Positions 41,416 through 63,593 of a DNA stretch of 64,000 nt are shown in pieces. The DNA comes from a virus. The stretch's first letter is position 1; every line of letters begins with the position of its first letter. A program made the translations under genes and the position numbers. Where the stretch lies: the IMG/VR virus record IMGVR_UViG_3300045988_126140, positions 64,001-128,000 of that record; one strand, 5' to 3'. The notes beneath the pieces are model-generated. The model worked only from the letters and a program-made list of their open reading frames with translations. It was not told the DNA's origin and ran no database searches.

Positions 41416-41467
41416 ATAAACATAAACAACAACAAAAAAATAATTAATAAAAAATTAAAAAAAGTTG

Positions 41468-41496
41468 TTGACAAAATAGACGACAAGTGATAACAT
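41468..41496 (+). promoter_or_regulatory. sigma-A-type promoter
   Basis: TTGACA, a 17-nt spacer, then TAACAT. The 15-mer lies just upstream at 41437..41451. Confidence 0.55.
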
Positions 41497-41580
41497 TAAA
41501 GTATAAGTATTAGACAAGGGAGAACGCCCAACCGTTCATAAAGTAACAATAAAAATAATTAATAAATAGGAGTGGTAAAT

Positions 41581-41940
41581 ATGAAAACAAGAAATCCAAA
41601 GAACTTAGTTAAAAGATATGGAAATCTTTGCGAATTAGAAAACACTGTATCAGATTGTTATTTAGGAAATTCAAGTTTCTATATGTTATCTGACGGTAGA
41701 TACTTGAATGCCGAATCTGATGGTAGTTACAGAGCAGTCGACCATAGAATAATTTTTGGAGCTACAAAAATAAGTGCATACGATAATGACGCTTTTGGAA
41801 AATTACAAAGAAATTACCAACTTATTAGAATAGTTCCAGAGTGTGAAACTATAATGTTAGATAAAAAGCAGAAGATAACATTAGAACAACAAAGAGAACT
41901 TGACAACCTTGGTTTTGACATAGAATATTATTGGGAATAA
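41581..41940 (+). CDS. hypothetical early protein
   Basis: The ATG sits behind AGGAG; the track start at 41572 is a GTG inside the RBS. The 15-mer lies directly upstream. Confidence 0.65.
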   Translation: MKTRNPKNLVKRYGNLCELENTVSDCYLGNSSFYMLSDGRYLNAESDGSYRAVDHRIIFGATKISAYDNDAFGKLQRNYQLIRIVPECETIMLDKKQKITLEQQRELDNLGFDIEYYWE

Positions 41941-42000
41941 TAATCTATTCCCTAAAGCTCAAGTTTTAAAAATAATTAATAAATAAAGGGGATGTTTTAA

Positions 42001-42444
42001 ATGCTAAAAGGTGAAATAAGAAAAGGAACAATAAGAAATACAGAAGGACAAGAAAAGAAATATATTAAACAGTTCAAAGGTAACGACCTAGAAAAGTGTA
42101 TCATAGCAATAAATAATATGATGCATCAACGTATATACACATCAAGTCACTTAAGAAAAAAATCAACAGTATCATATAATATGAGAACAATTTGCGAAAT
42201 GTTGAAATATGGAGAATTTGACGTCATAGAATACAATTACACTAGAGGACAAGGAAGAATATTAGTGGAAAGTTGGAGTACATTTCCAGTAGAAATTGAT
42301 GATAAAATGACACAATGTACAATGAAGGTTGTCGTTGAACCAAAAACACAAAAAATTATAACAGTATGGTATAATAGCGTTGACGACACTCATGTAAGTT
42401 TAAATATGAAAAGATATAACAAGGACTTAGAAATTGTGTTCTAG
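42001..42444 (+). CDS. hypothetical early protein (weak resemblance to small DUF4258/BrnT-like toxin folds)
   Basis: A 147-aa ORF. The pattern H.RK...S....I.EML.YGE.DVIEY.....G..LVE......KVVVEP...KIITVWYN is only a remembered similarity. Confidence 0.6.
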   Translation: MLKGEIRKGTIRNTEGQEKKYIKQFKGNDLEKCIIAINNMMHQRIYTSSHLRKKSTVSYNMRTICEMLKYGEFDVIEYNYTRGQGRILVESWSTFPVEIDDKMTQCTMKVVVEPKTQKIITVWYNSVDDTHVSLNMKRYNKDLEIVF

Positions 42445-42497
42445 TCCTTCCAGCTCAATACTATCATTTATGATAATGAAAACAATTAATAAAATTG

Positions 42498-42526
42498 TTG
42501 ACAAATATTAAATGATAGTATATAAT
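42498..42526 (+). promoter_or_regulatory. consensus sigma-A-type early promoter
   Basis: TTGACA, a 17-nt spacer containing AATGATAGTA, then TATAAT. Confidence 0.7.
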
Positions 42527-42561
42527 ATCGATATAAAATAAATTGATAGGAGTGATGAGTT

Positions 42562-42708
42562 ATGAAGAAAGTATATTATAGCTTATATTTAGTAACAGAA
42601 GAAAGCGAAGAATTTTTAGCAAAAGTAAAGTCAAAAGGTCTTGCAATAAGAACTAAAATGTTATATAACAAAATATATGAAGGCAAAGGAAAAATAATTA
42701 TTAAATAG
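42562..42708 (+). CDS. hypothetical small protein (48 aa, below the track cutoff)
   Basis: MKKVYYSLYLVTEESEEFLAKVKSKGLAIRTKMLYNKIYEGKGKIIIK. It has an RBS (AGGAG) and its own promoter. Confidence 0.5.
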   Translation: MKKVYYSLYLVTEESEEFLAKVKSKGLAIRTKMLYNKIYEGKGKIIIK

Positions 42709-42780
42709 AGGATTTTAAGCCCTCTAGCTCAAGCTATCGAATGATAGCAAATTATATTAATAAAAAGGAGATATAAGATT

Positions 42781-42945
42781 ATGAAAAATAAAATGTTATT
42801 TGTATTAGTGTTAGTATTAGGAATTGTTATATTTAAAAATCAAATATCCATAGCATTGATGTATGCAGTTGACTGTATAGGTTATGCATTCAACATTAAT
42901 GTGGTTGATATTATTGATTTGCTTAATACAATATACTATTTATAG
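42781..42945 (+). CDS. small hydrophobic protein (54 aa, below the track cutoff)
   Basis: MKNKMLFVLVLVLGIVIFKNQ... with an RBS (AAGGAG). Confidence 0.5.
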   Translation: MKNKMLFVLVLVLGIVIFKNQISIALMYAVDCIGYAFNINVVDIIDLLNTIYYL

Positions 42946-42994
42946 TATTAAGCAATGATGGCAAAAATAATTAATAAATTTTTTAAAATAATTA

Positions 42995-43023
42995 TTGACA
43001 ACATCTAAATGATAGTATATAAT
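42995..43023 (+). promoter_or_regulatory. consensus sigma-A-type early promoter
   Basis: TTGACA, 17 nt (..AAATGATAGTA), then TATAAT. The 15-mer lies at 42964..42978. Confidence 0.7.
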
Positions 43024-43056
43024 ATTAAGTATAAGTAAATAAAGGAGTTGGTTTAA

Positions 43057-43404
43057 ATGACTAAAAAAGAAAAAAATATATTATTAGAAGAATATGGATA
43101 TCAATATCAAATGGAACAACTAATGGATAAGGATATTAGATTTTATAAAAATCTATTAGACAAATTAGGACTTCATAATGACAGAATAAATATAGAAAAC
43201 GATGTTTATTATATGGAAAATGAATTGAGTACTGTAAAATCCCATGCCTATGAAAGCCTTAATGATATAATTGAAAAATACAATGATGGTAAAAGAGTTA
43301 ACGTTGAAGTCATGGAAATTTATTTAGAAGAAATAAAATATCAAGCTACTAATGATGATAAAAAATATATAGAAAGCAGTAAAAAAATTATATTAGGAGA
43401 ATAA
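43057..43404 (+). CDS. hypothetical early protein
   Basis: A 115-aa ORF with an RBS and its own promoter cassette. Confidence 0.65.
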   Translation: MTKKEKNILLEEYGYQYQMEQLMDKDIRFYKNLLDKLGLHNDRINIENDVYYMENELSTVKSHAYESLNDIIEKYNDGKRVNVEVMEIYLEEIKYQATNDDKKYIESSKKIILGE

Positions 43405-43458
43405 TTTTCTCCTAAGCTCAAGCTATCTAAATTATAGTGAATAATATTAATAAAATTG

Positions 43459-43487
43459 TTGACTTGTTGTAAATGATAGTATATAAT
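43459..43487 (+). promoter_or_regulatory. sigma-A-type early promoter
   Basis: TTGACT, 17 nt, then TATAAT. Confidence 0.7.
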
Positions 43488-43522
43488 ATTAAATATAGAA
43501 TAAATAAAGGGGAGTCGATAAT

Positions 43523-44020
43523 ATGAAATATTTTGAAAGTTGTAAGAGTAAAGAAGACGCAAAAAAATTATATAAAAAATTAGCTTTCCAATATCATCCC
43601 GATAAAGGCGGGGATGTTGAAATAATGAAAGCCATCAATAATGAATTTGATGACTTTATGAAGAACTTTAGAGAAGAAAAAAAAGATAGTAAAAAAGAAT
43701 ATGAATTTACGGCAACTACATATAGAAACCTTATAGAACAATTAATAAAATTTGACGATATAACCATTGATGTAGTAGGCTGTTTTATATGGATAACTGG
43801 CAACACTTATCCAATAAAAGAAGAATTAAAACAATTAGGATTTAGATTTAGTAAAAATAAAAAATCATGGTATATTGCGCCAGAAGAATATATGAAAAAT
43901 AGAGTCAATTATAAGAAAAAATACAGTATGAATGAAATAAAAAATAAATATGGATGTACTTCTATAAAATCAAAAGGAGGATACAAGAAGGAAAAAGATA
44001 ATATAATAATGATAGGATAA
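43523..44020 (+). CDS. J-domain (DnaJ-like) protein, copy 1
   Basis: KEDAKKLYKKLAFQYHPDKGGDVEIMKAINNEFD carries the HPD motif. The C-terminal motif LKQLGFRFSKNKKSWYIAPEEY is shared with 48313..49167. Confidence 0.75.
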   Translation: MKYFESCKSKEDAKKLYKKLAFQYHPDKGGDVEIMKAINNEFDDFMKNFREEKKDSKKEYEFTATTYRNLIEQLIKFDDITIDVVGCFIWITGNTYPIKEELKQLGFRFSKNKKSWYIAPEEYMKNRVNYKKKYSMNEIKNKYGCTSIKSKGGYKKEKDNIIMIG

Positions 44021-44166
44021 ATAATTAATAATACTGCTTATAAGAACATAAGCAGTATAGCTCAAAATGATTATATAAATTATTAATAAAAACTATTGAC
44101 AAAAGATAGTAAAATATGATATTATATAATCATGATAAAAATAATTAATAAATAGGAGTGGTAAAT

Positions 44167-44676
44167 ATGAATAAAAAAACATTATGGACTATATTAGGTA
44201 TAACAAGTAATGCTATATTTCTAATAGGATTATTATTAATAATAGTATCATTTAAATATGATACTCATAAAGAATATGCATATACAGAAATGACTAGCAT
44301 AAACATACAAAAAGATGACAAAATAATAGCTAATGAACGTCCTCTTGATGATAGTCAAGAGCATGACAATAGAGTTAATAAAGATAATAAAGATTATGCT
44401 ACTAATAACACTAGTGATTATGTTATAAAAACAACTACAAAAAAATCTACATACAATAATAATAGCAAAAACAATAGTAATGATAATAAAAACTATAGTA
44501 ACACTAATACTAATAATACTAATAATACTAATAATACTAATAATACTAATAACAATAATAACTATACAGTTGAATATACAAACACCAGTTATTGTGGATT
44601 TTGTGGTAAACAATTAAATAACAACGATGGTATTTGTGAAACTTGCAAAGATATAAGAAGTAAATTAGGAGAATAA
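44167..44676 (+). CDS. membrane-anchored protein with an Asn/Thr repeat and a C-terminal zinc ribbon
   Basis: It has an N-terminal transmembrane segment. The NTNNTNNTNNTNN stretch comes from a 9-bp tandem repeat at about 44503-44560. The C-terminus reads CGFCG...CETC. Confidence 0.65.
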   Translation: MNKKTLWTILGITSNAIFLIGLLLIIVSFKYDTHKEYAYTEMTSINIQKDDKIIANERPLDDSQEHDNRVNKDNKDYATNNTSDYVIKTTTKKSTYNNNSKNNSNDNKNYSNTNTNNTNNTNNTNNTNNNNNYTVEYTNTSYCGFCGKQLNNNDGICETCKDIRSKLGE

Positions 44677-44732
44677 TTTTCTCCTAAGCTCAATACTATC
44701 ATTTTGATATTGAAAAATAATTAATAAAACTA

Positions 44733-44761
44733 TTGACAACTTATGAATGATAGTATATAAT
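44733..44761 (+). promoter_or_regulatory. consensus sigma-A-type early promoter
   Basis: TTGACA, 17 nt (..GAATGATAGTA), then TATAAT. The 15-mer lies at 44714..44728. Confidence 0.7.
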
Positions 44762-44800
44762 ATTAAATATAAGTAAATTAATAAAAAGGAGAATGATATT

Positions 44801-45115
44801 ATGAATAAAAAAGAATTAAGAACAATAGTAAAAGGTTTAGAAGGATATAAAATAGTTTTAACAAAAGAAGAATATAGAAAAGAAGGAAGAAAAAACTTCC
44901 CTAAAAATCCTTTAGAAATAACTGTTGAAGAAATAACAAGAGAAGAATATGAAAAAATATTCTCTAGTGTAAACTTCTTTATTGAAACATTTGGAGGGAC
45001 TGAAAGAATTTATAAAAGTTATACTTTAGCAGGTTATATACCTACTAAATTAGTAAGTACAAGTCCTAATAAAGAAATTAAAATTGTAAGAAGAATATCT
45101 ATTGAAAGATATTAA
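44801..45115 (+). CDS. hypothetical early protein
   Basis: A 104-aa ORF with an RBS. Confidence 0.65.
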   Translation: MNKKELRTIVKGLEGYKIVLTKEEYRKEGRKNFPKNPLEITVEEITREEYEKIFSSVNFFIETFGGTERIYKSYTLAGYIPTKLVSTSPNKEIKIVRRISIERY

Positions 45116-45279
45116 AAATAATTAATAAAGTTATTTATAATGATGACAAAATCATATATTATATAAATATAAAAAGGTTTACTGGTTCATCCTTTAAAAA
45201 CCAGTCGTAAAAATAATTAATAAATTTTTTAAAAAGCTTTTGACAATGATAATAAAATATATTAATTGGAGGTTTTAAA

Positions 45280-45516: not shown

Positions 45517-45587
45517 GGGCGTTAAGCCCTGGTTCTTAGTCATCAAAATGATGACAGAATATATTAATATTTTGGAGGTAATAATAT

Positions 45588-45818: not shown

Positions 45819-45941
45819 TTCCTCAAGTTCTAGATTGTCTAAAATGATACTAAAAATAATTAATAATACTGCCTATATTTATAGGTGATATTGCTCAAAA
45901 CTATCAAATGATAGTAAATAATATTAAAGGGGATGGAATAT

Positions 45942-46766
45942 ATGAACGAATTACAAATAAATAATAAATTAGTTGCTACTATACCAAGTTACGAAATTGC
46001 TAAAATGATGGATAGAAGACATAGCGATGTATTAAGAATGTTGGAAGGGAGTGAAAAACCTAAAGTTATCGGAATAATACCAGTTATAGAGGAGAACGTA
46101 GAACTACACTTATCCGATTATTTTATTAAATCTACATTCATAACAAGTCAAAATAAAAAAGTAACTTGTTATGAATGTACGCGAATGGGTTGTGATATAT
46201 TAGCGAATAAAATGACAGGTGAAAAGGGAATATTATTTACTGCGAAATATGTTAAACGTTTTAGAGAGATGACAGAATATATTGATAATCAAATACAACA
46301 ATTGTCACCAGAAGACCAAGCTGTATTAAATATAATAAATGCAAATGATAAACTTGATAAAGCATTAGCCATAAAGGATTACAAAGATATCATAGAAAAG
46401 CCTTTATTGCAAGAAATAGATAAAATTAAACCATTAGCTCAAAAATTTGAAGCATTTTTAAAAGATGATGGATTAATTGATATAAATACATTTGCTAAAA
46501 CATTAGGGATAAAAAATCTTGGAAGAAATAATATGTATAAATATCTTAGAGATAATCACTACATAGATAAAAATAATTATGCTATGCAGAGATATATTAA
46601 TCAAAAATTATTTATTCTTAAACCAAGGGGGTATAAAGAAAATTATTATGGTGAGCGTATGCTAATATTTAAAACTTTTATAACTAAAAAGGGATTGGCT
46701 TATCTATTAGGAAAATTAGTCGAAGACGGATATATAACTTTTACAGATGATAATAAAAATAATTAA
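45942..46766 (+). CDS. antirepressor (Rha-type N-terminal domain plus KilA-C/ANT-type C-terminal domain)
   Basis: IPSYEIAKMMDRRHSDVLRMLEG is Rha-like. DINTFAKTLGIKNLGRNNMYKYLRDNHYIDKNN.AMQRYINQKLFILKP is KilAC-like. Confidence 0.7.
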   Translation: MNELQINNKLVATIPSYEIAKMMDRRHSDVLRMLEGSEKPKVIGIIPVIEENVELHLSDYFIKSTFITSQNKKVTCYECTRMGCDILANKMTGEKGILFTAKYVKRFREMTEYIDNQIQQLSPEDQAVLNIINANDKLDKALAIKDYKDIIEKPLLQEIDKIKPLAQKFEAFLKDDGLIDINTFAKTLGIKNLGRNNMYKYLRDNHYIDKNNYAMQRYINQKLFILKPRGYKENYYGERMLIFKTFITKKGLAYLLGKLVEDGYITFTDDNKNN

Positions 46767-46777
46767 TAAATATTATT

Positions 46778-46805
46778 GACTGGAGTTTTATCCAGTCTTT
46801 TTTAT
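46778..46805 (+). terminator. intrinsic terminator
   Basis: GACTGGAGTTTTATCCAGTC followed by TTTTTTA. Confidence 0.75.
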
Positions 46806-47277
46806 TGTCTATAAAATGATAATGATTTTCATTAACATTAAATATTAACTCCAGAAGTTATTTTTATAAAAGCTCAATAAAATCAACCTCTTAAACGCCC
46901 TTCTAAGGCGTTTTAAAATGATTAAGGTATAAATACCTTGTAGGCTATCGAATTCCTTTATAATGGATTATATAGGATATTTTATATTTTTATCTATAAT
47001 TGATAATACTTTTCATTTATATATTTATTCTCATTTAAAAATGATACTAAAATATATTAATTTATGAATTGATAATAAATATCAAATAAAATTATTTGTT
47101 ATTGAGAATAATAATCATAACTATAAAAATTAATTTATATATAAAATAATATATTTTTAAAAAAATTTATATTTATTATTGATTTATAAAATTGAATATG
47201 ATATTATATAATCATAGTAGTAAATAAAAAGTTTTAAAAGATTATAAAAATAATTAATAAAATTAATAAAAAAGCTC

Positions 47278-47851: not shown

Positions 47852-47973
47852 TCCTAATAGCTCGAGCTATTAGGATAATTATAAAAACAATTAATAAATT
47901 TAAAAAAGCTCTTGACAAAATAAAATGAAGTGTGATATAATTAAAATATAAAATAAATAAAGGAGTTGATAAT

Positions 47974-48249: not shown

Positions 48250-48312
48250 GGGAATTAATCCCTTCCAGCTCTTAAAAATAATTAATAAGATAATTGAAAG
48301 GGGACAAATGAT

Positions 48313-49167: not shown

Positions 49168-49330
49168 TATTATAGGTTTATTGGTTTATCCTTTAAAAAC
49201 CAGCATAAAAATAATTAATAAATTTTTTAAAAATTCTTGACAATGATAGTAAAAATAATTAATAAGATAGCACTTGACTTTTATATGGGTTGAGTGCTAT
49301 AATATAATATAAGATAACTGAAAGGGGAAA

Positions 49331-49825: not shown

Positions 49826-49963
49826 ACTATTATATGGTAGTATGGAAATATCTATACTACCATATAGAAAAAAGATAATAAAAATAATTAATAAATAGCT
49901 CTTGACAAATATATCTACAATGATATATAATATAACTATAATAATAAATAAGGAGTTGATAAT

Positions 49964-50215: not shown

Positions 50216-50321
50216 TCCTCAAGCTCAAAAGTCAATGATGATAAAAATAATTAATAAAATCATTGACAAATAATAACATAACATGATATACTTAATATAT
50301 AAAATTGATTGGAGGAATTAA

Positions 50322-51173
50322 ATGATGGAAAAATACATTAAAAGTCCGATGAATTACACAGGGGGCAAAGGTAAATTATTAAGTCAAATATTACCACTAT
50401 TTCCAAAAAATATAAATACTTTTGTAGATTTATTTACAGGTGGTTGTAATGTAGCAGTAAATGTATCAGCTAATAAAATAATAGCTAATGATTTATGCAC
50501 TCAAGTAATAAATACATATAAAGGAATACAAAATAATACTACAGAAAAAGCTATCGAAATGATAGAAAAAATAATTAACGAATATGATTTAAGTAAAGAA
50601 AACAAAGAAGGTTATTTAGAATTAAGAAAAGCTTACAATGATGGTAATAAAGAATGGCATATATTCTATACTTTATTAGCTTATTCATTCAATAATCAAA
50701 TTAGATTCAATAAAAAAGGCGAATTTAATATGCCTTTTGGAAAGGGTAGAAGTAGTTTTAACTCAACTTTAAAAAAGAAATTTGAAGACTTTTCAGACGC
50801 AATTCATAATAAAAATATAAAATTTACAAATAACGATTTTAAAAAATTAAATATAGATAAATTAAAGAATGATGATTTTGTATATTTAGACCCACCATAC
50901 TTAGTAACAGAAGCTACTTACAATACAGGTTGGAATGAAGAAACTGAAAAAGAATTATTATCATTATGTGACAGATTAAATGAAAAAGGTATAAAATTTG
51001 CAATATCTAATGTATTAGAACATAATGGAAGTAAAAATGAAATATTAATAAACTGGAGCAAAAATTATAATATAAACTACTTAGATTATAATTATTCAAA
51101 TTGTAATTATCATAAAAAAGATAATGGACATAAAAGTATAGAAGTTTTAATTACTAACTACAAAAATAATTAA
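50322..51173 (+). CDS. DNA N6-adenine methyltransferase, Dam/D12-class (no restriction partner in the window)
   Basis: MNYTGGKGKLLSQILPLFP, FVDLFTGGCNV (FxGxG) and VYLDPPYLV (DPPY) appear in the order typical of Dam-like enzymes. Confidence 0.8.
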   Translation: MMEKYIKSPMNYTGGKGKLLSQILPLFPKNINTFVDLFTGGCNVAVNVSANKIIANDLCTQVINTYKGIQNNTTEKAIEMIEKIINEYDLSKENKEGYLELRKAYNDGNKEWHIFYTLLAYSFNNQIRFNKKGEFNMPFGKGRSSFNSTLKKKFEDFSDAIHNKNIKFTNNDFKKLNIDKLKNDDFVYLDPPYLVTEATYNTGWNEETEKELLSLCDRLNEKGIKFAISNVLEHNGSKNEILINWSKNYNINYLDYNYSNCNYHKKDNGHKSIEVLITNYKNN

Positions 51174-51242
51174 TAAAACCCTTGACAATGATAGTTAAAC
51201 ATGATATACTTAATATATAAAAATAAAAAGGTGGTTGATATT

Positions 51243-51791: not shown

Positions 51792-51846
51792 ATAACCCTC
51801 TAGCTCAATCAATGATGATAAAAATAATTAATAAAATTATTGACTT

Positions 51847-52231: not shown

Positions 52232-52353
52232 CCTTCCAGCTCTTGAAATGATAGTAAAAATAATTAATAAATTTTTTAAAAAGCTCTTGACATCTTAGTT
52301 AAAATCATATATGATAATATTAAGATTAAGATAATTGAAAGGGGTTTTATAAT

Positions 52354-52839: not shown

Positions 52840-52911
52840 AAAATAATTAATAAAAATAATTAATAAATTTTTTAAAAGCTCTTGGCAATGATAGTAAAAA
52901 TAATTAATAAA
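52840..52911 (+). repeat. cluster of three copies of the 15-mer AAAATAATTAATAAA
   Basis: Copies lie at 52840..52854, 52853..52867 and 52897..52911. This is an example of a motif found about 45 times in the window. Confidence 0.9.
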
Positions 52912-53713: not shown

Positions 53714-53767
53714 AAATTTAAAATGATACCAAAAACTATTAATAAATAATATTAAGGGGTGGTAAAA

Positions 53768-54367
53768 ATGATGAAAGAAACTTGGACTGAAAAAGAAATA
53801 AGAAGTTATATGAAGAACTTTGTTAATGACATGGACGAAGAAGACAAAATGGTAATAGGGGATATAATTGATGCAATTCCAATATCAGTAGACGGACGAC
53901 TTAAAAATAGTCTAGGTTACTTCTCTGGTATATATAAAAGAAGTGGAGAATTTGTAGAACCTGTAAAATTTAAATTTTCCAAACGTATTAACTGTTATGA
54001 CGATAACACTATAAAACATATTATAAATCACGAACTTTTACACTTATTATCAGACAAGAAGTATGGTAAAAGTACAAGCCATAACAAAGAATGGAAAGAA
54101 CTTTGCTGTAAATATAGGATAAATGATGATGAATTCTTTACTCCTAATTTAGAATTAGAAAAAGATTATCACCGTTATCATATATATTGTAATGAATGTT
54201 ATAAATTAGTAGGTGTAAGAGACAGATTATCAAAAGAGAAAATAATTCAATTGTTATTATATGGAAGACATCAAGATGATTATGGTAAATTAAGAATATA
54301 TGATAATAAAGAAAAAGGATATATTAAATTAAACAATATAATGGTAAATGATGGTGAAAATAATTAA
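53768..54367 (+). CDS. SprT-like zinc metalloprotease-domain protein
   Basis: It carries IINHELLHLL (HExxH). The start was chosen behind AAGGGG. Confidence 0.55.
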   Translation: MMKETWTEKEIRSYMKNFVNDMDEEDKMVIGDIIDAIPISVDGRLKNSLGYFSGIYKRSGEFVEPVKFKFSKRINCYDDNTIKHIINHELLHLLSDKKYGKSTSHNKEWKELCCKYRINDDEFFTPNLELEKDYHRYHIYCNECYKLVGVRDRLSKEKIIQLLLYGRHQDDYGKLRIYDNKEKGYIKLNNIMVNDGENN

Positions 54368-54437
54368 TAAAACTGTTGACAAATGATAGTGAAATATGAT
54401 ATAATTAATGATATAAAACATAAGGAGGTTGGTAATT

Positions 54438-54920: not shown

Positions 54921-55085
54921 AAGAACTAAAATGATGACAAATAATATTAATTGATAGGCTAGATTTTATTCTAGTCTATTCTTTTATAGTTCAAAAAGAT
55001 TGTAAAAATTATTAATAAATCTATTGACAAAATATACCATATGATATATACTTATACATATATAAGATATTAAAGGGAGGAAAAG

Positions 55086-55988
55086 ATGATGGAAAAAGTT
55101 AATAATATGGAAAGATTAATAAATAATTATATAGCATACTTGAAGGATATAAAAAACTTATCACCTAAAAGTATTAAATCATATATTCCAGTAGTAAAGG
55201 AAATGATTGAGTATTGTGGATTTAAAAGAATAGATGATATACAAAATTCTACTATAATCCAATTACAAAATTGGTTAAACAAAAAAAGAAATGAAGGATT
55301 ATCTAATCAAAGTCTTAACAGAAGGATAGCTAGTTGTAAATCATTTTATGGTTATCTATGTGCATTTAGGATTATTGATTTTAATGCTAGTAAGGAACTT
55401 AAACAATTAAGAATTGAATCTAAAGGTAAAATAGGAAACACAGGACAAGTTGACAAAATAAGAACTTATTTAGAATCTGAATATAATAGAAAACCTAATT
55501 ATATGAATATGAGAAATAGATTGATTGTTGAAGTCATGCTTAATTGTGCTTTAAGAAATTCAGAGCTTAGACAATTAAATATAGATAGTATCAATCCCAA
55601 TACTGGAGAATTTACAGTTATCCAAAAAGGCGGGACTAGGAAATCTTGCGTGTTATCTAGTAAAACATTACAACTATATAATGAATACATGATAGAACGC
55701 AACAGAATCCCTTCTAAGGATAATTCTCTATTTCTTAGTAGTTATAAGAGTAGAATAAGTATTGGTGGCTTAGAAAAGCTTATACACAAGATAACAGAGG
55801 TTACAGGACAACAGTTAAATCCCCACGATTTACGTCATATTTCAGCTACAAAATACGTGGAAGCTGGATTTAGTTGTGATGAGGTCGCAAAGTTACTAGG
55901 GCACTCAAGTAGTAATACAACCTTCAGATTTTATTATCACCAAGATAATGACAATAAAAAGAAAATGGTTGAAAATACATGGGATTAA
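55086..55988 (+). CDS. tyrosine recombinase (XerC/D / phage integrase family)
   Basis: NCALRNSELRQL (Arg box) and HDLRHISATKYVEAGFSCDEVAKLLGHSSSNTTFRFYYH (H-x-x-R, H, Y) are present. Confidence 0.8.
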   Translation: MMEKVNNMERLINNYIAYLKDIKNLSPKSIKSYIPVVKEMIEYCGFKRIDDIQNSTIIQLQNWLNKKRNEGLSNQSLNRRIASCKSFYGYLCAFRIIDFNASKELKQLRIESKGKIGNTGQVDKIRTYLESEYNRKPNYMNMRNRLIVEVMLNCALRNSELRQLNIDSINPNTGEFTVIQKGGTRKSCVLSSKTLQLYNEYMIERNRIPSKDNSLFLSSYKSRISIGGLEKLIHKITEVTGQQLNPHDLRHISATKYVEAGFSCDEVAKLLGHSSSNTTFRFYYHQDNDNKKKMVENTWD

Positions 55989-56944: not shown

Positions 56945-56982
56945 AATTGACTATAAAAATAATTAATAAAGGAGATGATAAT

Positions 56983-57792
56983 ATGAGTAACAAAGTACAA
57001 AAATTATTTGATAAATTAGTAGAAAAATATAATATGAGAGCAATAAAAATAGGTGATGAAACATGGTATGCGATGAACGATTTACCATTAGATAGAAAAG
57101 CAATAAACAGAAAAATGAGTGACCTTAGAAAAAACTTATCTGGTAACGGTGATTTTAAATATACTCCAAACTTTGTAGAGCAAAACACAAGATTAATAAC
57201 AAATTCAACGGTGATTTTAAATCACCTTAGAAATTTTGATAAAGTTCATAATACAGGAGAAATGTTTGGTAACTTTACAATGATAAATTACATAGTTATG
57301 ACAAGTAGACTTGGACACGAATATAAAATAGAAATGATAAAAATTTTAGACGAAATAAGAAAAAATGATTTCTATGTAGATGACAATATATCAAAAGAAC
57401 AATTAAACTCGCTTCAGAACAAAGTTAATAAACTAAAAGATAGATTACATTATGAAAGACGTAGAAAGGCTTACGGGGCTACTCAAATAGTTAAAAAAAT
57501 AAATATAGATAATTTGTTGCCAAGTACATTATTTAGATACCTAGATGAATATTTGAATTTAGGAGATTATATAATAGTAAATAAAAATAGAAGATTTAGA
57601 CCTAATGATAATTTTGTTAACAAATGTGCTGATTTAGGTGTAGTCAGAATTGGAGTAAACAATAATATAATATTCTTTAGTGAATTTGCAGAACAAGTAA
57701 ATAGAAACAAAGACATCCTTAATATATTGAAAATAATTAATAAAGAAGAATTACAAATAAGAGAAAAGGGAATTGAAAACAGAATTAAATAA
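56983..57792 (+). CDS. antirepressor-like protein (Bro-N/KilA-C-like)
   Basis: The start MSNKVQ sits behind AGGAG. NMRAIKIGDETWYAMNDL and a C-terminal KilAC-like stretch give weak motif support. Confidence 0.45.
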   Translation: MSNKVQKLFDKLVEKYNMRAIKIGDETWYAMNDLPLDRKAINRKMSDLRKNLSGNGDFKYTPNFVEQNTRLITNSTVILNHLRNFDKVHNTGEMFGNFTMINYIVMTSRLGHEYKIEMIKILDEIRKNDFYVDDNISKEQLNSLQNKVNKLKDRLHYERRRKAYGATQIVKKINIDNLLPSTLFRYLDEYLNLGDYIIVNKNRRFRPNDNFVNKCADLGVVRIGVNNNIIFFSEFAEQVNRNKDILNILKIINKEELQIREKGIENRIK

Positions 57793-57803
57793 TCATTGCT
57801 TTC

Positions 57804-57831
57804 AAGAGGTTTTATACCTCTTATTTTTTTT
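57804..57831 (+). terminator. intrinsic terminator
   Basis: AAGAGGTTTTATACCTCTT followed by ATTTTTTTT. Confidence 0.75.
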
Positions 57832-57973
57832 GCTTTATTTTCAAAATAATTAATAAATTATGAATATTTAAACTCCATTTTGTATATAATATAGTAAAGA
57901 AAATTAATAAAAAGTAGTTGTCATTAAGGATATCATATGTTATACTAAGCAAGACAACTAAGAAGGAGTTAAA

Positions 57974-58846
57974 ATGAAAAAAATGTGTGATAAAAAAATT
58001 AAAATGGACAGAATGGAAAATAGAGTAAACGATTTAATTAATGAAATAGGTGAAAAAAATATAAATGAAGAAGTGATAAAAGATTTTGCTATAAAAAATT
58101 TAAAGACAATTAATAGAAGTAGTTTCTACGATGGATTTAGAATTTTAAAAGAAGTATTAGATACAAAGGGAATTAAATACGATTTAAAAGAAGATGAATT
58201 AATGGAAAAATGTTTATATTTTGACGAATCTAAATACTTCACAAAAACTCAAATATTAGATATAATCAATTCACTTATAAATGCACAAGACAAATTATTA
58301 ATATACATGATATTTAATAAAGTATTAGGTAAGAAATTCAAAGACCTATTAGAAATTAAGGTTTCTGACGTAGCCGAAGACTATAGTTATATAAATGTAA
58401 ATGGAAATAAAATACTATGCGACGATATAATGAAAGAGTTAGTTAAAGACACAATAGAACAAGAAGTATATGTTAATACAACAAGAAGTAGAAACGTACT
58501 TTATTATGATTTAAATATGAATAGTGAATATTTATTCAAGACATTATGTAATAGATATACCAATAATGGTTTAGAACCAATGAAACGTAGTAATTTAAGT
58601 GGAAAATTAACTGTTTTAACAAAAGAATTACAACATGGAGGATTAAATGTTACCTTAACAGCTACAGGAATATATCAGTCTGGAATCATGTATGACATGT
58701 TTGTATTGCAAGTATTAGATAATATTATATGGACTATACAAAATACAAAGAGCTATCTTGATATAAATGGATATAATATGAATGCCAATGAATTAACCTA
58801 TAAATATCACCATTTATATTATGGAACGAACTCTTCAAGAAATTAG
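57974..58846 (+). CDS. hypothetical protein, possibly a degenerate integrase-fold protein
   Basis: A 290-aa ORF. Its layout recalls tyrosine recombinases (..LLIYMIFNKVLGKKFKDLLEIKVSDV..), but the catalytic R/H/Y residues are not evident. Confidence 0.5.
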   Translation: MKKMCDKKIKMDRMENRVNDLINEIGEKNINEEVIKDFAIKNLKTINRSSFYDGFRILKEVLDTKGIKYDLKEDELMEKCLYFDESKYFTKTQILDIINSLINAQDKLLIYMIFNKVLGKKFKDLLEIKVSDVAEDYSYINVNGNKILCDDIMKELVKDTIEQEVYVNTTRSRNVLYYDLNMNSEYLFKTLCNRYTNNGLEPMKRSNLSGKLTVLTKELQHGGLNVTLTATGIYQSGIMYDMFVLQVLDNIIWTIQNTKSYLDINGYNMNANELTYKYHHLYYGTNSSRN

Positions 58847-58912: not shown

Positions 58913-59061
58913 AGTATAAGAAAGGAGTTGATGCAAATTGAGTGTAGAATAAAAATAATTAATAAAATCAGTTGACAAATTGTAGTGAATATCATATACT
59001 TAATATTATAAATAATCAATAAAATATTAATAAAAATAATAAATAAAGGGGATGGAATATT

Positions 59062-59838
59062 ATGGGAAATAAAATAGATAGAACAGGAGAAATAAATTGT
59101 AATACGTTTGGAAGTGAAATGATAATTACGGAATATAGAAGTGCAAAAGACATTGATGTTTATTTTTCAGAATATAACTGGACTTTTAAAAATGTTCGAT
59201 ATAGTATTTTTAAAAATGGTAATATGAAATGTCCGTATGAAAGAAGACATTATAAAATTGGTTATTTAGGTGAAGGTGAGTATAAAATGAGTGAAAATCG
59301 TAAACATACCAAAGTTTATAATACTTGGCATCATATGTTAGAAAGATGTTATGATAAAAAATTTCAAGAGAAACACCCCACTTACAAAGATTGTAAAATA
59401 TCTGAAGAATGGCATAACTTTCAGAATTTTGGCAATTGGTATAATGAAAATTATTATGAGGTAGAAGGCGAGATTATGTGTTTAGATAAAGACATTCTTG
59501 TTAAGCATAACAAGATATATTCACCAGATACTTGTATATTTGTACCTCAAATAATTAATACTTTATTTGTTAAAAGAGATAATGATAGAGGTGAATCATG
59601 TATAGGTACAAGTCTTAAAGATGGAAAATATCAAGTAAGTTGTAATTTAATTAATCCTAAAACTGGAAAATCAAAAAGCGAATATTTAGGAATTTATGAT
59701 ACAGAACTAGAAGCATTTGAGGTTTATAAGTATTATAAAGAAAAGAATATAAAACAAGTAGCTGATTATTATAAAGAACAAATACCATATAAACTTTATA
59801 ACGCTTTATACAAGTATAAAGTTGAAATAAATGATTAA
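59062..59838 (+). CDS. homing-endonuclease-like protein, paralog 3 of 5
   Basis: It carries the same signature as 52931..53713. Confidence 0.55.
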   Translation: MGNKIDRTGEINCNTFGSEMIITEYRSAKDIDVYFSEYNWTFKNVRYSIFKNGNMKCPYERRHYKIGYLGEGEYKMSENRKHTKVYNTWHHMLERCYDKKFQEKHPTYKDCKISEEWHNFQNFGNWYNENYYEVEGEIMCLDKDILVKHNKIYSPDTCIFVPQIINTLFVKRDNDRGESCIGTSLKDGKYQVSCNLINPKTGKSKSEYLGIYDTELEAFEVYKYYKEKNIKQVADYYKEQIPYKLYNALYKYKVEIND

Positions 59839-60014: not shown

Positions 60015-60099
60015 TTGATTTTAAAAATAATTAATAAAACAGTTGATAAATTATAATAAACATCATATAATATATATAAAATAAAAACAAGGGGGATAA

Positions 60100-60411
60100 A
60101 TGATAAATATGATAATAGAACCTATGAACTGTGCAGGGGGAAATGTAATCGAAAAAAATAAAGAAAGAATTAGAAATATAAAACTAGAAATACAAAGAGG
60201 TGGTATTTCGATAAATAATCTATATAGTAAATATAACTACGAAGGATTTAAAACTTTTTTATGTAACAATGTATTATTTGAAGATATACCAGATTCAGAA
60301 GTTATTAGGATATATAATTGTATAAACAAGGAGCAGTTTAAAGAATGGTATATGAGTAGAGGGACTAGAGGTGCGTATGATTTAATAGCATATTATAAAA
60401 TTTATAAATAA
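60100..60411 (+). CDS. hypothetical protein
   Basis: A 103-aa ORF with an RBS. Confidence 0.6.
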   Translation: MINMIIEPMNCAGGNVIEKNKERIRNIKLEIQRGGISINNLYSKYNYEGFKTFLCNNVLFEDIPDSEVIRIYNCINKEQFKEWYMSRGTRGAYDLIAYYKIYK

Positions 60412-60490
60412 TTAATAAAGATGTTGACAAAATAGTAAAGGATATGTTATACTTAGTACATAAATAAAATAATAAAGGAGCTGATATAAT

Positions 60491-60832: not shown

Positions 60833-60870
60833 TATAATATACAAAAGATAAAATAAGGGGGAAATTGAAT

Positions 60871-61068
60871 ATGAAATTAATAGAAGCATTTCAAATAGTT
60901 ACTGATTCTATAGAAGACGATATAAAATTTTGTAAGGAAATTAACAATGACTTTGACGATGAGTTTCTACATGAAGTTATTGATTTCTTAGAAACAAGAT
61001 GCGATGTATTGAATCGTGCTGAACAAAGGGAGAGAAAATGGAATCAACGTAGAAATTTAGAAAAATAA
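60871..61068 (+). CDS. hypothetical protein
   Basis: The ATG sits behind GGGGG; the track start is a TTG. Confidence 0.55.
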   Translation: MKLIEAFQIVTDSIEDDIKFCKEINNDFDDEFLHEVIDFLETRCDVLNRAEQRERKWNQRRNLEK

Positions 61069-61090
61069 TTAATAAAAAAGGGGGATTAAA

Positions 61091-61867
61091 ATGGGGAAAG
61101 TAATAGATAGAACAGGAGAAAAGAATTATAATACATTTGGAAGTAAAATGATAATAGCGAATTATAATGGATGTATGGATATTGATATATATTTCCCAAA
61201 GTATGATTGGACTTTTAAAAATGCAAAATATCAACATTTTAAAAATGGAGATATAAAATGTCCTTATGATAGAAGTATATATGGTGTTGGTTACATTGGT
61301 GAGGGTAATTATAAGGTAAGTGAAAATCGCAAACTAACTAAAGTTTATAGCACTTGGCAAAGCATGTTACAAAGATGTTATTCTGAAAAATTTCAAGAGA
61401 AACATCCTACATATATTACTTGTGAAGCATCTGAAGAATGGCATAATTTTCAAAACTTTGCTAAATGGTACAATGAGAATTACTATGAAATTGAAGGCGA
61501 AAGAATGGATTTAGATAAAGATATTTTAGTAAAGCACAATAAAATATATTCTCCAGAGACTTGTATATTTGTACCACAAACTATTAACAAATTATTTGTT
61601 AGATGCGATAGAAGTAGAGGTGAATCAGTTATAGGTACAACTCCTGTAAATGGTAAATATCAAGTAAAATGTTATTTACTTAATCCTAAAACAGGAAAAT
61701 CTAAAAATGAATATTTAGGCTATTATGATAGTCAAGAAAAAGCATTTGAGGTATACAAATACTATAAAGAAAAGAATATAAAAGAAGTCGCTGATTATTT
61801 TAAAGATGAAATTCCAGTTAAACTTTATAACGCTTTATATTCATATGAAGTTGAAATTACAGATTAA
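61091..61867 (+). CDS. homing-endonuclease-like protein, paralog 4 of 5
   Basis: It carries the same signature. It shares a 126-bp tract with paralog 1 that differs at one position. Confidence 0.55.
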   Translation: MGKVIDRTGEKNYNTFGSKMIIANYNGCMDIDIYFPKYDWTFKNAKYQHFKNGDIKCPYDRSIYGVGYIGEGNYKVSENRKLTKVYSTWQSMLQRCYSEKFQEKHPTYITCEASEEWHNFQNFAKWYNENYYEIEGERMDLDKDILVKHNKIYSPETCIFVPQTINKLFVRCDRSRGESVIGTTPVNGKYQVKCYLLNPKTGKSKNEYLGYYDSQEKAFEVYKYYKEKNIKEVADYFKDEIPVKLYNALYSYEVEITD

Positions 61868-61895
61868 TAATAATGTATAAAGGAGGTTATATAAT

Positions 61896-62033
61896 ATGAA
61901 ACATTTATTTAAATTTATATTATTATTGTTAATTTATGGAGTTTTATTTGAAACATTCGGAGTAAAAAGTTTTGATGGTAAGTGGTTAATTATGACTATT
62001 TGTGTTACATTGACATATATGTTAGGTAATTAA
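61896..62033 (+). CDS. 45-aa hydrophobic protein (below the track cutoff)
   Basis: MKHLFKFILLLLIYGVLFETFGVKSFDGKWLIMTICVTLTYMLGN behind AAGGAGG. Confidence 0.45.
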   Translation: MKHLFKFILLLLIYGVLFETFGVKSFDGKWLIMTICVTLTYMLGN

Positions 62034-62049
62034 TAAAGGAGGAGAAAAT

Positions 62050-62661
62050 ATGTTAGATAAATTTAATTTAGAATCATTATATATATTTAATAAAAACAAA
62101 TACAAAGTCTACAATGGTACAATTCCTAATTGGGTTGAAATATGTCACGGATTAATAGTTGAAGTGGAAAACGAATATATAGGTAATATTAAAGTAGAAG
62201 GCGAAGAGTACGTTGTATTTCCTTATAGTTGTAATAAAATAGAAGTAGATGTTAAATCCGCAGAAACAGAAAATGTATATGGAAATGATATTATAAATGA
62301 CGTTATAGGAACAATACAAACAAAATCAAGTTTTCAAGGTGGTAAACCTAAAGAATTTGAAGGAAAAATATTTTTTGGTATAGATAAAAATGATATTTGG
62401 ACAGACGCAGGATTTTCATTATTAGATAATTTAGAAGATAAATCTATAAATAATCACTCAAAAGAACTTACATTTAATGTAAATAAGAAATATTATTTTG
62501 ATGTGAATTTAGTTGATAAAAAAGACATAAAAGATTGGATGTATAAATGTAGTGGAGTTAATGTCGATGTAGCTGATGTAAATAAAGGATTTGTTTTAGA
62601 TTCGTGGGAAGATGAATATCATGTTGTAGTTAGAAAATGGTGTAAGTTGAAAAATAATTAA
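62050..62661 (+). CDS. hypothetical protein
   Basis: A 203-aa ORF with an RBS. Confidence 0.6.
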   Translation: MLDKFNLESLYIFNKNKYKVYNGTIPNWVEICHGLIVEVENEYIGNIKVEGEEYVVFPYSCNKIEVDVKSAETENVYGNDIINDVIGTIQTKSSFQGGKPKEFEGKIFFGIDKNDIWTDAGFSLLDNLEDKSINNHSKELTFNVNKKYYFDVNLVDKKDIKDWMYKCSGVNVDVADVNKGFVLDSWEDEYHVVVRKWCKLKNN

Positions 62662-62719
62662 TAAACTTATTGACGAATAATATTGAAAACTAAATAATTA
62701 ATAAAAAGGAGGAGAAAAT

Positions 62720-63502
62720 ATGAGTGAAAAAACAATAGGTAGAACAGGTGAAACAGCTTATAATAAATTTGGAAGCGAGATGATAATTATTGATTATAAA
62801 GGATGTATGGACGTAGATGTTTATTTTCCAGAATATAATTGGACCTTTAAAAATGCACATTATAGTAGTTTTAAAAAAGGAAATATTAAATGCCCTTATG
62901 AGAGGAGATATTATGAAGTTGGATATTTAGGAGAAGGAAAATATAAAGTAAGTGAAAATGGTAAACATACCAAAGTTTACCAAACATGGCACGATATGTT
63001 GAGAAGATGCTATGACGAAAAAAGTCTTAAAAGAAATCCTACTTATATAGGCTGTAAGGTAGATAAAGAGTTTCATAATTTTCAAGAATATGGAGAATGG
63101 AGCGAAGATAACTATTATGAAATAAAAGAAGAAAAGATGTGTCTTGACAAAGACATATTAGTTAAACATAATAAAATCTACTCACCAGAAACCTGTATAT
63201 TTGTACCGCAAAGAATAAATACTTTATTTACAAAAAGAGATAGTAAAAGAGGAAATAATCCAATAGGTGTTTCAGATTATATAAATGGTAAGTATGTAGC
63301 ACAATGTCATATAATTAATCCCGAAACAGGAAAATCAAAATATGAATGTTTAGGTGTTTATGAAACTCAACTTAAAGCTTTTGAGGTGTATAAAGAATTT
63401 AAAGAGAAAAATATCAGACAAGTAGCTGACTATTACTTTGGTTTAATCCCTAACAAACTATACAATACTTTATATAATTATGAAGTTGAGATAACAGATT
63501 AA
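62720..63502 (+). CDS. homing-endonuclease-like protein, paralog 5 of 5
   Basis: It carries the same signature and is the most diverged copy. Confidence 0.55.
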   Translation: MSEKTIGRTGETAYNKFGSEMIIIDYKGCMDVDVYFPEYNWTFKNAHYSSFKKGNIKCPYERRYYEVGYLGEGKYKVSENGKHTKVYQTWHDMLRRCYDEKSLKRNPTYIGCKVDKEFHNFQEYGEWSEDNYYEIKEEKMCLDKDILVKHNKIYSPETCIFVPQRINTLFTKRDSKRGNNPIGVSDYINGKYVAQCHIINPETGKSKYECLGVYETQLKAFEVYKEFKEKNIRQVADYYFGLIPNKLYNTLYNYEVEITD

Positions 63503-63593
63503 AAATAATTAATAAAATTTATTAGAAGGTATTGACTTTCTAGTAAATACTTTATATAATATGTAGTATAAGATAAACAAAGGGGGAGAAAAT

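Follow-up and report, generated by a model that had tools for sequence, protein, structure and literature searches.

A strand-oriented A/T-only word ahead of most early genes of a gut phage-plasmid as a candidate operator of an MrpR/SroF-family repressor

What reads a short A/T-only word that recurs at gene after gene of a phage, on the strand of the gene beside it, and that stands in some places ahead of a promoter and in others against a ribosome-binding site? The question is raised by a stretch of viral DNA of 64,000 nucleotides (nt), positions 64,001 to 128,000 of IMG/VR record IMGVR_UViG_3300045988_126140, hereafter called the window, in whose numbering the coordinates are given. The window is about half of a 133.6-kb SPbeta-like phage-plasmid from a human gut metagenome, in which an exact-protein look-up sets it at about positions 63,991-127,990. 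Its repeated word, the 15-mer AAAATAATTAATAAA with the core ATAATTAATAA, was noticed in an original prediction made from the letters alone, which listed several possible roles. We propose that the word is probably, by analogy with the SPBRE element of phage SPbeta, the asymmetric operator network of a master repressor of the MrpR/SroF family encoded in the window at 57974-58846. In what follows we describe the word and its surroundings, compare it with SPBRE, and weigh the other explanations.

The core occurs 47 times in the window, against a mean of 2.14 +/- 1.6 and a maximum of 7 in dinucleotide shuffles, and the 15-mer occurs 52 times with at most one mismatch (36 exact) where 1.12 are expected. 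Markov models of order 1 to 6 give expectations of 1.5-4.6 for the core and less than 0.3 for the 15-mer. At k = 11, 13 and 15 the top k-mers are the motif word and its shifted versions, and the median count of the AT-only 11-mers of the window is 2. One outcome that the original prediction had named as refuting it was comparable counts for many other AT-only 11-mers; such counts are not reached, and its claim of over-representation stands. Its manual tallies of about 33 plus-strand and about 12 minus-strand copies lie close to the 34 (all inside 41440-63515) and 13 (all inside 3168-35015) counted here.

In the information profile over the copies, about 17 nt stand out as a sharp island between flanks of about 0 bits, and 8-11 nt upstream there is a weak TGAT signal, with which the element would reach about 23 nt; the element is thus (T)AAAAATAATTAATAAA, possibly about 23 nt in all if the weaker 5' TGATAG is counted. 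Since the island has flat flanks, the copies are not by-products of longer duplications, despite the five HNH-like paralogues nearby, and segmental duplication was ruled out as their origin. The element is non-palindromic and is repeated at many distant intergenic and promoter sites of the window. In every case its strand is that of the local genes (GC and AT skew change sign at about 41 kb), and 45 of the 47 cores are non-coding, although coding sequence makes up at least 72% of the window, so that the earlier observations of constant gene orientation and almost constant intergenic position both hold. Of the single intragenic copy described before, near 57733, only the number needs correction: the copy is present at 57730, and a second lies at 29646-29660, both using the sole open reading frame (ORF) of the motif, K-I-I-N-K. 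The two other frames are shut by TAA codons, and upstream ORFs often end inside the motif; a role as a three-frame stop signal was nevertheless rejected because the KIINK frame stays open. In the plus-strand block, 30 of 35 genes have a copy at most 160 nt upstream.

For the anatomy of the copies we tabulated 54 good ones, namely the 47 exact cores and seven one-mismatch 15-mers (Table 1), and counted spacings (+n) in nt from the motif end to the start of the -35 box or of the Shine-Dalgarno sequence (SD). Twenty copies (class A) are followed by a -35 box, mostly TTGACA, either at +4 to +7 (mode 4) or at +13 to +16; the proximal and distal spacings differ by about one helical turn, and the distal one is filled by TTTTTTAAAAAGCTC. 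Sixteen copies (class B) have an SD at -2 to +8 and a start codon 12-23 nt after the motif. The other 18 comprise four intron-associated copies, about six standing before a hairpin or terminator, two intragenic ones and, for the rest, extra copies upstream of another copy. The hairpin or terminator is a third context (copies 15046, 18946, 33392, 44018, 45853 and 46756), with T-runs at the terminators after 15046 and 46756. Both contexts named in the original prediction, before a -35 box and at an SD, are therefore recovered, with 20 and 16 copies respectively, and the position it likened to that of an UP element is confirmed as geometry (4-7 or 13-16 nt ahead of the -35 box). Its view that SD-abutting copies lack a promoter survives in part: the abutment is real, but copies 41552, 41969, 44138, 59033 and 62691 follow a sigma-A promoter and are part of its leader.

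The association with promoters is close. Between 41.4 and 61 kb we collected the 19 sigma-A-type promoters that score best, each with at least 11 of the 12 consensus positions matched and all on the plus strand. In sixteen of them a motif copy precedes the -35 box by 4-16 nt, and in a 17th the leader holds one, about 25 nt downstream; seven motif-bearing promoters match the consensus at all 12 positions. The only intergenic top-scoring promoter without a nearby copy, TTGACT-17-TATAAT at 43459-43487 (+), drives a J-domain-like gene (43523-44020), and this gene may escape repression.

A known element with this kind of distribution is SPBRE (CAAATACAAAAAATATGTATATA). It is bound by the master repressor MrpR at 10 promoter regions, as shown by chromatin affinity purification with sequencing (ChAP-seq), electrophoretic mobility shift assays (EMSA) and lacZ fusions; MrpR (also YopR or SroF), a protein of tyrosine-recombinase fold that is catalytically dead, represses both PaimR and PyosX by about 5-fold (PMC10516654). 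SroF binds as a monomer to an asymmetric box of 24-26 bp that has many genomic sites (bioRxiv 10.1101/2025.11.27.690993). We scanned the SPbeta genome for SPBRE with up to three mismatches and found about 13 copies, all intergenic and all co-oriented with the local genes. According to our own reading of the -35 and -10 boxes in the SPbeta sequence, SPBRE lies across the promoter core at yorE, yorM, yorZ, yosX and yonP, ends 4 nt upstream of the -35 box at aimR and at one yonX site (yonX#1), and abuts the SD at yopM, yopV and a second yonX site (yonX#2); PaimR, which is MrpR-repressed, thus shares the class A geometry of the window. The original prediction had held that no single known function covers both contexts. 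This does not hold, as a mapped MrpR/SroF operator sits in both of them, with the same 4-nt spacing.

The likeness extends further. SPBRE and its phi3T counterpart, Phi3TRE, are like the window motif asymmetric, AT-rich, strand-oriented and co-oriented with genes, and occupy many distant intergenic sites. SPbeta, phi3T and the window phage alike encode a family-related recombinase-fold protein next to a Xer-like gene. SPBRE is present at the yopM-R operon, and likewise motif copies stand at the promoter of the proposed repressor gene in the window. SPbeta and the window phage belong to one lineage with yon-gene synteny: YonV_C, YonG_N, YonD_N and YonB domains follow one another in SPbeta gene order, and the YonV match, obtained by phmmer of SPbeta proteins against the window ORFs, has E=6e-101. 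The same search with MrpR, YonO, YonN, YopQ, AimR and others returned only YonV and a weak YopP match. Tailed-phage proteins of the window include a tape measure, a portal, a split terminase, a Rep3-type initiator, an FtsK-like protein, a Xer-type recombinase and a 391-aa sigma-like protein. No nucleotide similarity was found between the window and 50,697 phage records, and a scan of GTDB genomes with the sigma-like protein gave no relative; the closest cultured relatives are phiCD211 and LIBA6276, large phage-plasmids of C. difficile, at about 30-35% amino-acid identity.

Which protein could be the reader? The product of 57974-58846 is, as judged from profile comparisons and a predicted structure, a homologue of the MrpR/YopR/SroF family with a tyrosine-recombinase fold of CB and CAT domains. 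It matches phrog_5830 (E=1.2e-11), the family to which MrpR itself belongs (E=4e-117), and all 43 of its 43 full-length homologues carry the precomputed label MrpR_C_cat (PF22823). Alignment of its profile with MrpR by hhalign gave E=1.9e-4 over 184 colinear columns. An AlphaFold2 (AF2) model built with 23 homologues has a predicted local distance difference test score (pLDDT) of 89.8, and the top seven Foldseek matches of this model in the PDB are phi3T SroF (including the DNA-bound 9rd5), YopR and MrpR, with E=3.5e-8 to 1.9e-6 and template modelling (TM) scores of 0.52-0.62; true recombinases (Xer, Cre, IntI) appear in that search at E=2e-4 or worse. The C-terminal half shows no HxxR box, and at the Arg-I position stands G-K-K (G-L-A in MrpR), in an alignment too remote for a residue-level call. 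The promoter of the gene, TTGTCA-17-TATACT, is weaker and is preceded by a two-mismatch copy at a distance of 6 nt and, farther up, by an exact one, an arrangement that fits autoregulation.

The window and every relative examined preserve the SPbeta order of a yopP (Xer-like) gene followed by yopR. The 300-aa integrase-family protein of 55086-55988 was considered as an MrpR analogue and rejected because it matches XerC/XerD and keeps all catalytic motifs (R..HxxR..H..Y, read as R..HDLRH..GHS..Y); it looks like a working Xer recombinase. The original prediction was right to suspect a protein-binding site, but the HU-like and sigma-like proteins, which it had named as possible binders, are not the best candidates; the HU-like protein (30397-30702) gives only a sub-threshold Bac_DNA_binding match, and no observation ties it to the motif.

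Relatives of the phage provide a comparison of word and protein. Among those found through the sigma-like protein (93, 93, 90 and 78% identical), the motif word is the top 11-mer in each. In L014, whose repressor is 59% identical and whose gene DNA is about 67-71% identical to that of the window, 20.9 kb of sequence hold 26 exact cores, each on the strand of the genes; at this level of DNA identity a neutral 15-mer would stay intact about 0.5% of the time. With greater distance the word itself changes, the amplified word being AATAATTAATA in L017 and L022 (repressor 49-51% identical), GAATTAATAAAATAAA in L023 (40%) and AAATATAAAATTAATAAAA in L016 (38%), where the original core has zero copies. 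All five of these genomes keep the three contexts, before a -35 box, before an SD and before a hairpin. The shift of the word with repressor divergence has the look of an operator co-diverging with its reader, which could be its cause, and shared descent alone could also yield it. The genome of LIBA6276 (L019) has about eight co-oriented intergenic copies of (T)AAACTAAATAAAAT, some at the promoters of xerC and of an MrpR-like gene, and this word is a candidate operator of that phage. Unannotated MrpR-like homologues (about 31% identity) adjoin xerC in both C. difficile phages (PHICD211_20140 in phiCD211 and LIBA6276_00136 in LIBA6276).

By analogy with MrpR and SroF, one repressor monomer would be clamped on each motif copy in the lysogenic (plasmid) state. 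At the approximately 20 promoter-linked copies it would sit at -54 to -40 or one helical turn farther upstream, where it would block RNA polymerase (contacts of the C-terminal domain of the alpha subunit, alpha-CTD, and of the -35 box). At copies in leaders or abutting an SD it would prevent promoter escape or stop read-through within operons as a roadblock, a mode of repression established in Firmicutes for CcpA and CodY. As nearly every gene would carry an operator, a single protein would be able to silence the whole genome. Several features of the motif would follow from such a mechanism: the element would have a strand because a monomer reads a non-palindromic site, this strand would always be that of the gene because of the fixed geometry relative to promoters and genes, and its high copy number would reflect the strong sigma-A promoters that nearly all early genes have to themselves. 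Repression and not activation would be needed, because the class A promoters are intrinsically near-consensus. The Rep3/iteron maintenance zone (35.0-41.4 kb) holds no motif copy, which is consistent with the repressor model. A parallel outside the lineage is phage P1, the C1 repressor of which has asymmetric 17-bp operators, about 14-20 in number and mostly overlapping promoter cores. P1 resembles the window phage in being a phage-plasmid whose repressor has a non-palindromic operator at many dispersed promoters of many operons, but the C1 fold is unrelated to the MrpR-like protein.

A number of observations weigh against the repressor reading. The pairing of protein and motif rests on analogy, and AAAATAATTAATAAA is unrelated in sequence to SPBRE and to the phi3T box. 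The conserved core spans 17 nt in the window compared with the 24-26 bp read by SroF, and some 54 good copies in 64 kb stand against about 13 in the 134 kb of SPbeta, a density 5- to 10-fold higher. With about 15% identity, the protein is a remote homologue of MrpR: phmmer with MrpR returned nothing among the window ORFs, and a direct Pfam hmmscan of the protein gave no match. In phiCD211 (L018) no amplified word was found in the genome, though the MrpR-like homologue is present, and so amplification is not a necessary property of this repressor family. Copies before terminators, in intron hairpins and before the SDs of late genes have no obvious repressive role, and the strict co-orientation with genes would also fit a signal at the RNA level. 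The copy-free maintenance zone is only weakly significant, the minus strand having fewer motifs per gene. The LexA box GAACN4GTTC is absent from the plus block, with one chance-level match at 19224, and no antirepressor (Sar) arm was found, both searches covering the window, that is, half of the genome.

Other differences from SPbeta should be set beside these. The commonest SPBRE context of SPbeta, spanning promoter spacer and -10 box, is rare in the window, and the window motif, unlike SPBRE, has extra copies in introns and before terminators. SPbeta is an integrated Bacillus prophage, whereas the window phage is apparently a Rep3 plasmid-prophage whose host is a low-GC anaerobe of the gut, and the window shows no arbitrium, LexA or Sar arm. 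A 9-nt A/T run common to the phi3T box and the motif was examined and appears by inspection to be at chance level.

A wider version of the repressor reading is possible, though we regard it as doubtful. The motif might form a genome-wide silencing grid of about one copy per gene for a monomeric repressor of recombinase fold, which when occupied blocks promoters and halts read-through, within operons and introns as well, and which, once vacated on induction, acts as an UP-like element and an A/U-rich leader boosting transcription and translation. It would then be a gene-boundary signal with two uses, its short identical copies also favouring the shuffling of cassettes.

Among the explanations that dispense with this repressor, the first to be considered is that the motif is an intrinsic UP element through which host alpha-CTD boosts the early sigma-A promoters, with no phage protein involved or as an added role when an operator is vacant. 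UP elements, such as that of rrnB P1, are degenerate A/T tracts at strong promoters. The motif resembles them in being made of A and T only and in lying at about -54 to -40 of consensus sigma-A/sigma-70 promoters, or one turn farther upstream, with helical phasing kept in the 20 class A copies; the presence of a copy at 16 of the 19 best promoters also agrees with it. However, the motif is an exact word, with 36 exact 15-mers and no change at about 70% DNA identity, where UP tracts are degenerate; the distal class has a separate and more canonical T-tract/A-tract in its filler; and 34 of the 54 copies, being SD-abutting, intronic, pre-terminator or intragenic, have no promoter downstream. The matching architecture in SPbeta is, moreover, a mapped repressor site. 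The UP-element idea of the original prediction thus accounts for the geometry and cannot explain the exact conservation over 17 nt or the promoter-less copies, and we consider it unlikely.

A phage sigma factor is another conceivable reader. On this explanation the motif would be a promoter or -10-like element for middle or late transcription, recognized by the 391-aa protein of 30841-32016 or by the Sigma70_r2 proteins of relatives, and compatible with it are the strict orientation, the intergenic location, the copies that immediately precede many late genes and the sigma-like gene, and the fact that the phage encodes sigma-like proteins. The motif also contains AATAAT, which once serves as a -10 box, 17 nt past TTGACG (62651/62691); late promoters of phage T4, which are of the gp55 type with a -10 element only and lie about 7 nt upstream of start sites, have the sequence TATAAATA. 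Yet the early block, whose genes already have consensus sigma-A promoters, holds 34 of the 47 copies, and an SD at -2 to +8 would put the start site at or past the SD, with no leader left. Terminators directly follow some copies (15046, 46756), the information profile has no conserved upstream partner element, and late transcription of SPbeta begins at one site, which is not an SPBRE. This late-promoter idea fits fewer facts than a repressor operator, and its chance seems to us slim. A separate late-promoter word was searched for in the minus-strand intergenic regions and nothing obvious was seen.

As slim is the chance of a signal read in RNA, located in leaders and intercistronic regions, be it an A/U-rich enhancer or standby site, the site of an RNA-binding regulator (compare RegA of T4) or that of an endoribonuclease. 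The motif is always on the transcribed strand, its end lies -2 to +8 nt from an SD in 16 copies, several copies are inside 5' leaders, and the stop codons in two of its frames often close upstream ORFs. Class A copies, on the other hand, are upstream of the start site, several of them behind terminators (57843 follows that of 57804-57822), and would rarely be transcribed; their fixed spacing of 4 nt or one turn more to the -35 box is a DNA-level constraint, and the homologous SPbeta element is bound as DNA. For these reasons the translational enhancer suggested earlier also explains less than an operator does.

The slightest chance is left to a recombination linker or mobile-cassette boundary, as in the promoter early stem-loop (PeSL) elements of T4 or the boundary sequences of lambdoid phages, or a target of free-standing HNH genes. 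PeSLs of the T4 type are mobile regulatory cassettes with homology over the whole promoter and stem-loop, and the window, too, has a mosaic early region with repeated modules in which a terminator hairpin and a promoter go with a small early gene. The genes of L014 and of L017 stand in a very different order from those of the window, some junctions fall exactly on copies (L014 12033-12055 joins window 61080 to window 56952), an HNH-gene insertion in L002 and L004 is bounded by motif copies, and a copy precedes each of the five HNH-like paralogues. But only 13 of 36 homology ends are within 10 nt of a motif, compared with 26% of random intergenic positions, which is no clear excess and leaves recombination at most a side effect; conservation is confined to about 17 nt with flanks of about 0 bits where PeSL homology runs over tens of nt, and the fixed spacings to -35 box and SD are left unexplained, so that this proposal, too, fits fewer facts than the repressor operator.

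If the repressor reading is correct, the recently described MrpR/SroF type of repressor is not confined to SPbeta-like phages of Bacillus and also governs phage-plasmids of low-GC gut anaerobes, with unannotated homologues in phiCD211 and LIBA6276 of C. difficile. About one copy per gene would place the network among the densest phage operator networks known. The finding supplies a predicted operator for each lineage and a candidate regulon of nearly every early gene, and the diverged pairs of protein and operator make a natural series for the study of specificity in recombinase-fold repressors.

Table 1. Motif copies and the two main protein genes of the window (spacings in nt from the motif end; promoter scores are consensus matches out of 12)
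Feature	Position	Strand	Context or basis
MrpR/YopR/SroF-like protein gene, 290 aa, proposed motif reader	57974..58846	+	PHROG, homologue labels, hhalign, AF2/Foldseek
Xer-type tyrosine recombinase, YopP-like, synteny marker	55086..55988	+	Pfam Phage_integrase; phmmer to SPbeta YopP E=1.8e-6
Class A distal	41437..41451	+	-35 TTGACA at +16
Class B	41552..41566	+	SD +1, ATG +14; leader of promoter 41468-41496
Class B	41969..41983	+	SD +2; about 25 nt downstream of promoter 41915-41944
Class A proximal, 1 mismatch	42479..42493	+	-35 at +4; promoter 12/12
1-mismatch copy	42691..42705	+	75 nt upstream of gene 42781
Class A distal	42964..42978	+	-35 at +16; promoter 12/12
Exact core	44018..44032	+	overlaps stop of gene 43523-44020; hairpin and AGCTCAA directly after
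Class A, 2 mismatches	44076..44090	+	-35 TTGACA at +5
Class B	44138..44152	+	SD +1; begins about 13 nt past -10 of promoter 44096-44125
Class A proximal	44714..44728	+	-35 at +4; promoter 12/12
Exact copy	45115..45129	+	directly past stop of gene 44801-45115
Exact copy	45210..45224	+	then TTTTTTAAAAAGCTT-TTGACA; upstream of gene 45280
1-mismatch copy	45853..45867	+	then hairpin and GCTCAAAA; upstream of Rha/ANT gene 45942
Exact copy	46756..46770	+	includes stop of gene 45942-46766; then intrinsic terminator 46778-46797
Class A distal	47247..47261	+	-35 at +16; promoter 12/12
Class A distal, 1 mismatch	47884..47898	+	-35 at +13; promoter 12/12
Class B	48275..48289	+	SD +8; hairpin and AGCTCTT ahead of copy
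Exact copy	49208..49222	+	then TTTTTTAAAAATTC-TTGACA, spacer of which runs into copy 49252
Class A	49252..49266	+	-35 TTGACT at +7; also 12 nt past an upstream TTGACA
Class A	49881..49895	+	-35 at +6; promoter 12/12
Class A proximal	50244..50258	+	-35 at +4; upstream of Dam methylase gene
Class A proximal	51163..51177	+	includes stop of gene 50322-51173
Class A proximal	51821..51835	+	-35 TTGACT at +4
Class A distal	52257..52271	+	-35 at +15
Exact copy	52840..52854	+	tandem with copy 52853, 2-nt overlap
Exact copy	52853..52867	+	then TTTTTTAAAAGCTC-TTGGCA
Class B	52897..52911	+	SD +7; 12 nt past TTGGCA; upstream of HNH-like paralogue 52931
Class B, 2 mismatches (AAAACTATTAATAAA)	53732..53746	+	SD +7
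Class A proximal	54357..54371	+	includes stop of gene 53768-54367; promoter 12/12
Class A proximal, 1 mismatch	55005..55019	+	upstream of Xer-like gene
Class B	56956..56970	+	SD at -2, overlapping motif end
Intragenic copy	57730..57744	+	in gene 56983-57792, frame K-I-I-N-K
Exact copy	57843..57857	+	between terminator 57804-57822 and repressor gene promoter
2-mismatch copy (AAGAAAATTAATAAA)	57897..57911	+	6 nt upstream of repressor gene promoter TTGTCA-17-TATACT, 57918-57946
Class A proximal	58952..58966	+	-35 at +5
Class B, 1 mismatch	59033..59047	+	leader of promoter 58972-59000; upstream of HNH-like paralogue 59062
Class A proximal	60024..60038	+	-35 TTGATA at +4
Class A proximal, 1 mismatch	60405..60419	+	includes stop of gene 60100-60411
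Class B	61062..61076	+	SD +1; includes stop of gene 60871-61068
Class A proximal	62651..62665	+	-35 TTGACG at +4; -10 (AATAAT) provided by copy 62691
Class B, 1 mismatch	62691..62705	+	SD at 0
Class A distal	63502..63516	+	-35 TTGACT at +15
Class B	35004..35018	-	SD at 0; upstream of 89-aa gene and YonV-like gene
Class B, 2 mismatches	34733..34747	-	upstream of YonV-like gene; exact copy here in relatives L002 and L004 (with HNH insertion)
Exact copy	33392..33406	-	then hairpin TTCCCCTT..AAGGGGAA
Class B	32038..32052	-	SD +6; directly upstream of sigma-like gene 30841-32016 (SPbeta yonP/yonO position)
Class B, exact core	30389..30403	-	overlaps end of HU-like gene; SD -2
Intragenic copy	29646..29660	-	in 375-aa gene 28995-30122, frame K-I-I-N-K
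Copy	27217..27231	-	between terminase exon 1 and 326-aa inserted ORF; SD +46; context resembles intron P6 region
Class B, 1 mismatch	20943..20957	-	SD +3
Class B, 1 mismatch	20393..20407	-	SD +3
Copy	18946..18960	-	then hairpin TAGCACTAC..GTAGTGCT, then SD of gene 18266-18886
Class B, 1 mismatch	15586..15600	-	SD +2
Exact copy	15046..15060	-	at stop of gene 15060-15569; then intrinsic terminator, free energy (dG) -15.6 kcal/mol, T-run
Class B	8555..8569	-	SD +1
Exact copy	5498..5512	-	intron-like context homologous to that of copy 27217
Exact copy	4424..4438	-	5' edge of partial group I intron match 4295-4431, just before AAACTTTCAACGACTA
Copy, 1 mismatch	3167..3181	-	3' arm of extended P6 hairpin, group I intron 3056-3372

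Four of the minus-strand copies had been assigned to peripheral loops of four out of six introns. Rfam at its gathering thresholds returned nothing, owing to the filters; with laxer filters a group I intron (RF00028) was found at 3056-3372 (-) with 76 bits and a partial match at 4295-4431 (-) with 31 bits, both downstream of a tape-measure gene fragment. Copy 3167 therefore lies in a full group I intron, where it pairs in the P6 hairpin with an imperfect reverse copy at 3194-3208, and copy 4424 lies at a partial match, but Rfam gave no match around copy 27217 (E<=1 in the split terminase) or at copy 5498. The large subunit of the terminase is split (24785-27966, -) into an ATPase N-part (27316-27966), a 326-aa ORF (26176-27156) and then the C-part, and the relatives L002, L003 and L005 have different GIY-YIG insertions at the split site.

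Five HNH-endonuclease-like paralogues (phrog_953, 61-77% identity) are located at 52931-53713, 56132-56944, 59062-59838, 61091-61867 and 62720-63502 (+). Each has an SD-abutting or degenerate motif copy ahead of it, and their number and positions vary among relatives, which suggests that they are free-standing mobile genes.

The sigma-like protein (30841-32016, -) belongs to phrog_5767, shows a weak GerE/LuxR helix-turn-helix (HTH) match and occupies the place of YonO, the single-subunit RNA polymerase of SPbeta; the HU-like protein (30397-30702, -) is at the yonN position. Because the sigma-like gene sits where YonO is expected, a phage sigma factor may take over the part of YonO in the late transcription of this lineage. 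L014 encodes two small Sigma70_r2-domain proteins (16093-16650 and 18124-18675) 6-8 kb downstream of its MrpR-like gene, and the matching position in the source genome of the window is just past the window end.

Near the Rep3-type initiator gene (35871-36827), three tandem 22-nt repeats (CTAGTTRTCYACAAG...) at 39921-39986 and a fourth copy at 40132-40146 lie in an adjoining 2-kb stretch that is poor in ORFs and free of the motif. They are probably iterons of a plasmid origin, in support of a phage-plasmid lifestyle. Among the late genes there is a transposase gene (13766-14908, -; phrog_506, 380 aa), with copy 15046-15060 and its strong terminator just upstream.

A second short word, AGCTCWW, has 17 copies on the plus strand within the 11 kb of 41956-52883 and none in 53-64 kb; its enrichment over the window is marginal (34 against 25 expected). 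It usually occurs as hairpin-AGCTCAA at a gene end or as AGCTC-TTGACA directly before a -35 box, and could be what is left of a promoter or a signal for processing or termination.

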